Origin: Candidatus Omnitrophota bacterium
GTDB lineage: Bacteria; Omnitrophota; Gorgyraeia; Zapsychrales; JANLHA01
Reading direction: 5' to 3'
Assembly (NCBI GenBank): GCA_017995055.1
Contig: JAGOJP010000001.1
Span: 1 to 54,744, forward strand
DNA length: 54,744 nucleotides
Shown: in pieces, positions 26,168-26,301 of the stretch
Layout: every line of letters starts with the position of its first letter
Numbering within the stretch: position 1 is the first letter of the stretch
Made by a program: the position numbers and the translations under genes
Notes under the pieces: generated by a model
What the model was told of the DNA's origin: nothing
Database searches by the model: none
What the model saw: only the letters and a program-made list of their open reading frames with translations

Positions 26168-26301
26168 CAGAAGACCAAGGGTACGCCCGTTGAGGAAGGT
26201 TAAAAGTTCTGCTTCGGGGATGTTCGCCTCAATGTTAAGATGTTATGGAATTCCGCTAAGCGAAATAGTTAACAGGGGCCGCGCCTAAGGGCGCGGGACT
26301 C
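26168..26301 (+). ncRNA. copy A of a ~140-nt conserved non-coding element (paralog at 39741..39883)
   Basis: Roughly three-quarters identical by eye to copy B. Shared blocks: CAGAAGACC, GGG-yACG-CCC, GGTTAA, GCTTCGGGGATGTTCGC, AAGCGAA, GTTAA.AGGGGCCGCGCC..GGGCG.GGG.CTC. Stop codons break all frames. Confidence 0.45.

Follow-up and report, generated by a model that had tools for sequence, protein, structure and literature searches.

The window analysed here (54,744 nt of a Candidatus Omnitrophota bacterium contig, JAGOJP010000001.1) contains an intergenic stretch in front of a small ORF/rtcB/archease unit, and a similar stretch occurs further along the same window. The pair raises the question of whether they are copies of a structured RNA, perhaps a Y-RNA-like partner of the RtcB genes, or a different kind of sequence. 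The full-length homology proposed in the initial annotation is real. Copy A (26154-26301) and copy B (39726-39883) align from end to end at ~72-80% identity (80% mean column identity across ~150 nt in the MAFFT alignment; 72% identity over 134 nt, E 2.4e-12, by BLAST within the genome). The conserved blocks that had been listed (CAGAAGACC, a GGG(T/C)ACGCCC hairpin, GGTTAA, GCTTCGGGGATGTTCGC and AAGCGAA) are present, as is the final hairpin (CCGCGCC-loop-GGCG(C/A)GG). The element is ~155 nt in length and its copies span 153-177 nt, with indels of lengths not divisible by three; no reading frame is therefore conserved, and the description of the sequence as non-coding stands. Remnants of a duplicated coding gene, which had been named as an alternative, are excluded by the non-triplet indels and by the location of the copies between genes.

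The pair is not a two-copy paralogy, as had been thought, because the genome contains ~60 copies; one of these is a third copy in the window itself. The assembly to which the window belongs (G000; 2.23 Mb, 176 contigs, 86% complete) returned 33 matches when copy A was used as a BLAST query. By its RtcB protein, this genome belongs with MAGs of Candidatus Omnitrophota. Three rounds of nhmmer, after which the search had converged, identified 60 matches, 47 of them near full length, and a covariance model built on 32 copies identified 58. The mean pairwise identity of paralogous copies in this genome is 66%, and some copies have internal deletions of 30-60 nt. Two contigs, C107 (3-139) and C134 (2-139), terminate within near-identical copies of the element. 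Thus, the element breaks this MAG assembly; the real copy number is probably greater than 60. A blastn search of a plasmid collection gave no match to the element.

Element boundaries were set from empty sites and the family consensus, and each is good to ~2 nt. Copy A occupies 26159..26304 on the forward strand (117.7 bits with the covariance model). Its 5' flank, at 26154..26158 (+), is TTTAT, the presumed target or cleavage-site pentanucleotide, and this flank is conserved family-wide. The left-end linker of copy A is CCGCCTTTCCAGAAGA, the left hairpin is at 26175-26192 (+), the right hairpin (CCGCGCC-TAAG-GGCGCGG) is at 26279-26296 (+) and the right tail, GACTCTAT, is at 26297-26304 (+). 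Copy B (39732..39886, +; 153.6 bits) has the flank TTAAT, a left hairpin at 39748-39765 (+), a right hairpin at 39861-39878 (+) and the tail GGCTCCCT. Copy C (16720..16877, +; ~16714-16870 by nhmmer, E 2.3e-33; 134.1 bits) has the flank TTTAG, and is located directly after the tail (~40 nt) of an unrelated 90-nt tandem repeat array. This second dispersed repeat has a unit of 90-91 nt and forms tandem arrays at 16137-16676, 18204-18713 and 41112-41354 of the window. Given the two repeat families side by side, the intergenic DNA of this genome collects several repeat families.

The genes that neighbour the three window copies are functionally unrelated (HTH/small ORF/RtcB/archease, CMD-like/MscS, and others). 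The congener G003 retains both of the gene orders around copies A and B (HK-HTH-small ORF-rtcB and PALP-CMD-MscS), and both sites are without the element. At site A of G003 only ~60 nt separate the HTH gene from the small ORF, and this is the empty site: G003 reads TAATATTTTAAACC, versus AATATTTAT-element-ACAACC in G000. At site B, G003 reads GGTTTT[TGTC]TGGAATGG, versus CGTTTTAAT-element-TGGAATGG in G000 (in a longer reading, ATGGTTTT[TGTC]TGGAATGGAAATC versus ATCGTTTTAAT-element-TGGAATGGAAATG). No target duplication is evident at either of these sites, where the species have diverged and the junctions are uncertain by 2-4 nt. Copy A has an ortholog in the sister species G001, in which copy B is partly deleted. 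Another congener, G002, encodes the small ORF and rtcB, and has the element in no part of its genome (covariance model search). Thus, the supposed synteny with rtcB does not hold, and copy A came to lie next to the small ORF, rtcB and archease genes by chance insertion.

Copy B is located between the stop codon of a CMD/AhpD-like gene and the intrinsic terminator of the same gene (39923..39955, +), which is host sequence outside the element. The same GC stem and T-run exist at the G003 empty site without the element, and the terminator therefore belongs to the CMD-like gene. It follows that copy B is an insertion into a 3' UTR, and not an sRNA gene. With ~59 other copies of this dispersed repeat at unrelated genes, the link to rtcB and the Y-RNA-like idea are not supported. 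At these sites there is no regulatory RNA dedicated to the rtcB unit or to the CMD-like gene, and a false lead is removed.

The top strand of the element has, in order, TTTAT, a 16-nt linker (CCGCCTTCGCAGAAGA), the left hairpin (consensus CCACGGGC-AT-GCCCGTGG) with ATGAATGCG directly 3' of it, a self-complementary interior of ~90 nt, the right hairpin (consensus CCCACGCC-CATG-GGCGTGGG) and an 8-nt tail, GCTCCAT, which forms the 3' end. The hairpins are subterminal, one per end, and both are on one strand. The linkers are unequal (16 nt on the left and 8 nt on the right). Terminal inverted repeats are lacking (there is no inverted match between the outermost 16 nt on the left and the outermost 8 nt on the right), and no ORF was identified in the element. 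A reading as an ISL3-type MITE was rejected, given the lack of terminal inverted repeats and of an 8-bp duplication. Positions -5 to -1 of the 5' flank are T, T, T, A and T in 40, 37, 34, 33 and 39 of 44 own-genome copies, respectively; position -8 is random in these copies. Right flanks are variable, the element closing with ...CTCCAT(A) and no TTTAT beyond.

In other families of the order the element is 190-205 nt in length and the ends are sharper. Their left end reads TTTAT-CCGCCTTCGCAGAAGA-CCACGGGC-ttt-GCCCGTGG-ATGAATGCG, and their right end GGTA-CCACGGGC-ttt-GCCCGTGG-GGCTCCAT. One subfamily (L023) has CCACGGGCtttGCCCGTGG as the hairpin sequence of both ends and another (L025) has CCACGGCtttAGCCGTGG at both. 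The left and right hairpins share sequence, and change jointly in related subfamilies. The repeat can be recognized by a compact signature: TTTAT, then CCGCCTTCGCAGAAGACC, a hairpin, a second hairpin and GGCTCCAT.

Copies are intergenic on a crude ORF map, save for short overlaps with crudely called ORFs. Forty copies are co-oriented with, and located between, co-directional genes, and five are opposed to both neighbours. The top strand is the locally G-rich strand in 57 of the 60 copies of the genome. Orientation in the sister species G001 is near-uniform for each large contig (13/13 copies on C1, 11/12 on C2, 13/14 on C3 and 8/9 on C4). As 87-91% of genes in this genus are on the G-rich strand, a replication bias is inseparable from co-orientation of the copies with transcription. 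On the stretch 1-360000 of G001 contig C2 (L137-L154), 261 of 299 crude ORFs are on one strand and the GC skew is +0.11 to +0.16.

The distribution of the element is patchy. The covariance model identified at least 70 copies in G001, which shares 95-97% amino-acid identity with G000, and none in the congeners G002 and G003. Matches occur in 16 of the 41 genomes of the order searched (our own and 40 relatives), with 1-22 copies in scattered genomes, and in 27 of 301 genomes of the phylum Omnitrophota. Of the twelve copies on G001 contig C2, eleven are at orthologous positions in G000. At the twelfth site G000 has only a short right-end remnant; this sole candidate for a recent insertion polymorphism is degraded sequence, not a new insertion. 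G000 and G001 showed no insertion polymorphism relative to each other, and mobility is therefore deduced solely from the patchy distribution and from empty sites of older date. The orthologous positions (11/12), together with the empty sites in G003, place a burst of insertion before the split of G000 and G001 and after their split from G003.

Ten intact ortholog pairs from G000 and G001 are 85.6% identical, plus indels, compared to 89.3% identity at 4-fold degenerate sites of six neighbouring genes. The copies thus evolve no slower than 4-fold sites, and there is no sign of purifying selection. The copies are old and now decay neutrally; the element is a neutral fossil in this genome.

We consider it highly probable that copies A and B are two of ~60 copies of a non-autonomous, ends-only element (PATE/MITE) of the IS200/IS605 type, because the hairpins are on one strand, the linkers are asymmetric, the fixed flank is on the left only, inverted termini and target duplication are lacking, and the top strand is nearly always the G-rich strand. 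The copy number, anatomy, flank, empty sites, strand bias, patchiness and neutral rate described above, and the related autonomous ISs described below, support this. The element is a new family within a known kind of mobile DNA. IS200/IS605 elements insert into the template of the lagging strand, and their left end always comes to lie 3' of one particular tetra- or pentanucleotide (PMC5027513). A guide tetranucleotide 5' of the hairpin foot reads the cleavage sites, and the wild-type left linker is 19 nt, as read from the LE19 label (PMC3597680). Ends-only derivatives of IS200/IS605 are known as PATEs (PMC7290912).

Like IS200/IS605 elements (IS608, ISDra2, IS200) and PATEs, the element has subterminal hairpins on one strand and no terminal inverted repeats. 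Also shared with IS200/IS605 are a short fixed sequence 5' of the insertion, the lack of a target duplication, and a linker from the cleavage site to the hairpin foot on both sides. The top strand of IS200/IS605 elements is on the lagging-strand template; the G-rich top strand in 57 of 60 copies is as expected from this, but 87-91% of genes are on that strand too. Non-autonomous copies without an ORF are a feature of PATEs, which were first named in Haloquadratum walsbyi. There are differences, however. The presumed target is TTTAT here and TTAC in IS608, ~60 copies in 2.2 Mb is high for the family, and no cognate TnpA with identical ends was found. Unlike in IS200/IS605 elements and PATEs, the left-end 20 nt are conserved over many phyla, and the interior is a conserved self-complementary module rather than a remnant of tnpA or tnpB.

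With regard to the identity of the transposase, the exact cleavage positions and the single-strand mechanism, we infer the following route. A Y1 (HUH) TnpA acting in trans would bind both hairpins in single-stranded DNA and cut 3' of TTAT at the left end and 3' of CCAT at the right end, freeing a single-stranded circle. On the lagging-strand template, the circle would then be pasted behind another TTTAT (on its 3' side), often at the T-run that follows a terminator, and no target duplication would be left. The burst dates to the ancestor that this species shares with its sister species, later than the divergence from the next congener. For mobile-element biology, the case offers a high-copy miniature of IS200 type with a clear target (terminator T-runs plus AT) and extreme strand bias.

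We identified no match to Pfam Y1_Tnp (PF01797) in G000, a genome that is 86% complete, and no Y1 transposase of the 140-150-aa class in G000 or G001. The only Y1 match in G001 is a 201-aa RAYT-like gene. Classical TnpA genes (142-146 aa) were identified by the Pfam Y1_Tnp search in several relatives, and Y1-domain genes of 200-340 aa are present in most genomes of the order. The complete Omnitrophota chromosome OY759724.1 (G002) encodes seven identical 142-aa Y1 tnpA genes, in IS copies L155-L161 at 255 kb, 546 kb, 1.50 Mb, 2.32 Mb, 2.52 Mb, 2.91 Mb and 3.28 Mb. This IS200-type element is ~566 nt in the six copies for which both ends were read; in copy L159 the left-end motif is absent from the stretch examined. 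The left flank is TTTTTAT in five of the six copies and TTTTTGT in one. The left end consists of a 13-nt linker (TATCGCGAAAAAA) followed by CCACGGCC-ATGA-GGCCGTGG-ATGAAGCG, and the right end is GAAA-CCACGGCC-GTGA-GGCCGTGG-AGTTTCAT. Right flanks differ among the six copies, none of which has a target duplication. Four are directly after intrinsic terminator hairpins, and the top strand coincides with the G-rich strand in every one of the six. The orientation of the copies flips between 0.55 and 1.50 Mb and again between 2.91 and 3.28 Mb, as if tracking replichores. The copies are identical, and thus young and active.

The G002 IS, along with a 92%-identical relative in G022, shares with the element the flank TTTTTAT, insertion after terminator T-runs and a G-rich top strand. 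Also shared are a left hairpin (CCACGGNC...GNCCGTGG) that is followed by ATGAA(G/T)GCG, and the same hairpin at the right end, followed by an 8-nt ...T(T/C)CAT tail. Unlike the element, the G002 IS carries the 142-aa Y1 tnpA, and its left linker is 13 nt and of different sequence. The covariance model detects only the left end of the near-identical G022 IS. An IS in G027 has a right hairpin (CCACGCC...GGCGTGG) that is the stem of the G000 element, plus a GTATCTAT tail. Judged by these sequences, the ends of the element appear to fall within the diversity of IS200-group elements of the order. An IS with ends identical to those of the element was not found; the ISs of G002, G022 and G027 are relatives, not parents. 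Close relatives of the G002 TnpA in a genome contig collection comprise those of G002 and G022 and a few distant matches, none with the left-end 20-mer of the element. A candidate partner IS is available in a complete congeneric chromosome (G002).

The copies could instead belong to a structured RNA that the host maintains by selection in many copies, as a cis-regulatory leader or as an sRNA family, and that is transcribed with its neighbours and acts at the RNA level, for example in mRNA stability, attenuation, or RNA-repair signalling at rtcB. Since almost every copy points the same way as its flanking genes, the copies are probably transcribed. Drawn by eye, a four-helix structure is open to the consensus. 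It consists of the left and right hairpins, a long-range helix (GCAGAAGA/TCTTCTGC) and a further helix between them (GCTTCG+GGGATG with CATTCC-G-CGAAGC). In this model 81% of cells are paired, derived G-U cells exceed A-C cells by ~2:1, and distant subfamilies differ in the long-range helix (P1) by double compensatory changes (GCAGAAGACC/GGTCTTCTGC versus GCCGGAGACC/GGTCTCCGGC). However, the pairing is no higher than in column shuffles (81.4% of cells over 32 copies versus 80.9%, with 78 of 500 shuffles reaching the observed value). RNAalifold, the common-fold check that had been suggested, gave no consensus structure for the 32 copies, and folds of single copies are no more stable than those of shuffled sequence (z -0.1 and -0.9). 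An overall C>T bias, seen in unpaired columns as well (C>T 0.162 versus G>A 0.112), accounts for most of the G-U excess. We conclude that the complementarity is a property of the ancestral sequence, and is not kept up copy by copy. Rfam searches identified no family matching the element in the whole window at gathering scores, around copy A at E up to 10, or at eight variant loci from other phyla, and an identity as Y RNA is not supported. Orthologous copies diverge at least as fast as 4-fold (synonymous) sites, large internal deletions occur (in own-genome copies and at site B of G001), neighbour genes are functionally unrelated, and congeners run the same operons without the element. A structured RNA under host selection is therefore quite improbable.

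Maintenance as a REP/BIME-like system by a domesticated RAYT, rather than mobilization by an IS200-type TnpA, is also improbable. REP, BIME and REPIN sequences are likewise highly repeated intergenic GC hairpins that include single-hairpin miniatures, and are thought to be acted on by a Y1 HUH enzyme in trans. Such a system would fit the Y1-domain genes (200-340 aa) that most genomes of the order encode, the 201-aa gene of G001 among them, as well as the REP-like single-hairpin forms of 44-47 nt in other phyla and the failure to find an autonomous IS with identical ends. REPINs, however, are inverted REP doublets with a GTAG/CGTC tag that flank a single-copy RAYT. Here, the hairpins are in asymmetric ends on one strand, with neither inverted doublets nor the tag. 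The RAYT-like gene of G001 is bracketed by a different inverted hairpin (GGGACAGTCCCC), and no left-end or right-end motif of the element is present within 12 kb of it. G002 and G003 own the same kind of gene yet have no copies of the element, and our own genome lacks any PF01797 match. The G001 gene (L123, contig C8, 4236-4841) is IS200-like, with inverted GGGACAGTCCCC-type hairpins on both sides (directly downstream, and ~90 nt upstream). A RAYT that has REPs of its own is laid out in this way, and those hairpins differ from the element. An omega-RNA-like guide scaffold, left by an IS that bore TnpB or IscB and used in trans by an RNA-guided nuclease, would suit an IS200/IS605-like element in which a self-complementary interior of ~90 nt ends at the right end, where omega RNAs lie. 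This is extremely improbable, given that no score over the cut-off for the TnpB zinc-ribbon domain (PF07282) was obtained in the 41 genomes of the order (our own and 40 relatives), that Rfam gave no match to the HEARO or IS605-orfB motifs, and that the related autonomous ISs carry tnpA only. The absence of TnpB from these genomes removes the omega-RNA idea.

The element, read as an IS200/IS605-type miniature, can also be compared with the bcr1 repeats, which are ~155 bp in length, have a predicted stable fold and carry TTTAT at both ends. In the element TTTAT is at the left end only. Both are dispersed intergenic repeats with a TTTAT motif, and in the Bacillus cereus group the mobility of bcr1 has been tied to this motif (PMC6542083). 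However, bcr1 is confined to that group and is unrelated in sequence.

The left-end 20-mer (ATCCGYCTTCGCMGRAGACC) was identified at 120 or more loci in a collection of species-representative genomes. The matches listed include MAGs labelled as Desulfobacterales/Desulfobacteria, Kerfeldbacteria, Parcubacteria, Saccharibacteria, Kiritimatiellae, Scalindua, Binatia, Firestonebacteria, FCPU426, Anaerolineae and Omnitrophota. A few matches in Actinobacteria look like chance. Among the matches listed, a recognizable right tail occurs within 420 nt of the 20-mer in 67 of 123 occurrences. Most of these fall into two size classes: 14 elements of 44-47 nt (left linker, one hairpin and right tail) and 49 elements of 120-240 nt that have a conserved interior. 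TTT is at positions -3 to -1 in 60-63 of the 66 elements of other phyla among the matches listed. No Y1 gene was identified near the 20-mer at the 120 matches listed (~8 kb each, tblastn with seven Y1 proteins).

The forms of 44-47 nt read ATCCGCCTTCGCAGAAGACC-ACGGGCTTGCCCGT-GGGGCTCCAT (left linker, single hairpin, right tail). They occur at L177, L199, L209, L213 and L239 (Desulfobacterota and other MAGs) and at L168, L170, L182, L204, L211 and L215 (mostly CPR-labelled, also Binatia and Anaerolineae). They look as if the interior had been lost through recombination between the two hairpins and, recurring in several genomes, they may themselves be mobile.

The left-end 20 nt are more conserved across phyla than a model of a mere linker, as in IS608, predicts, which counts against the IS200/IS605 reading. 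It is rather unlikely, but conceivable, that the element belongs to an uncatalogued superfamily across several phyla, in which the near-invariant left-end 20 nt and the conserved interior motifs (GGATGAATGCG, GCTTCGGCGGAT and the complementarity ATCCGCC/GGCGGAT) are kept for a reason beyond hairpin recognition. The MAG labels in question are Omnitrophota, Desulfobacterota, Patescibacteria/CPR, Kiritimatiellae, Scalindua, Binatia, Firestonebacteria and others. One candidate reason is that an IS200-type chassis carries a functional module of RNA or ssDNA; alternatively, a host-encoded Y1 enzyme could mobilize the element without any autonomous IS.

For the annotation of uncultured lineages, the repeat matters in that it breaks MAG assemblies and inflates the number of "structured intergenic RNA" candidates in Omnitrophota, CPR and Desulfobacterota. 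At one locus (L023, contig C108 of G027, 1793-1938) a c-di-GMP-I riboswitch (71 bits) is located ~90 nt from a long-form copy of the element. Several elements and the G022 IS adjoin tRNA genes or their terminators (L166, L182, L195 and L038).
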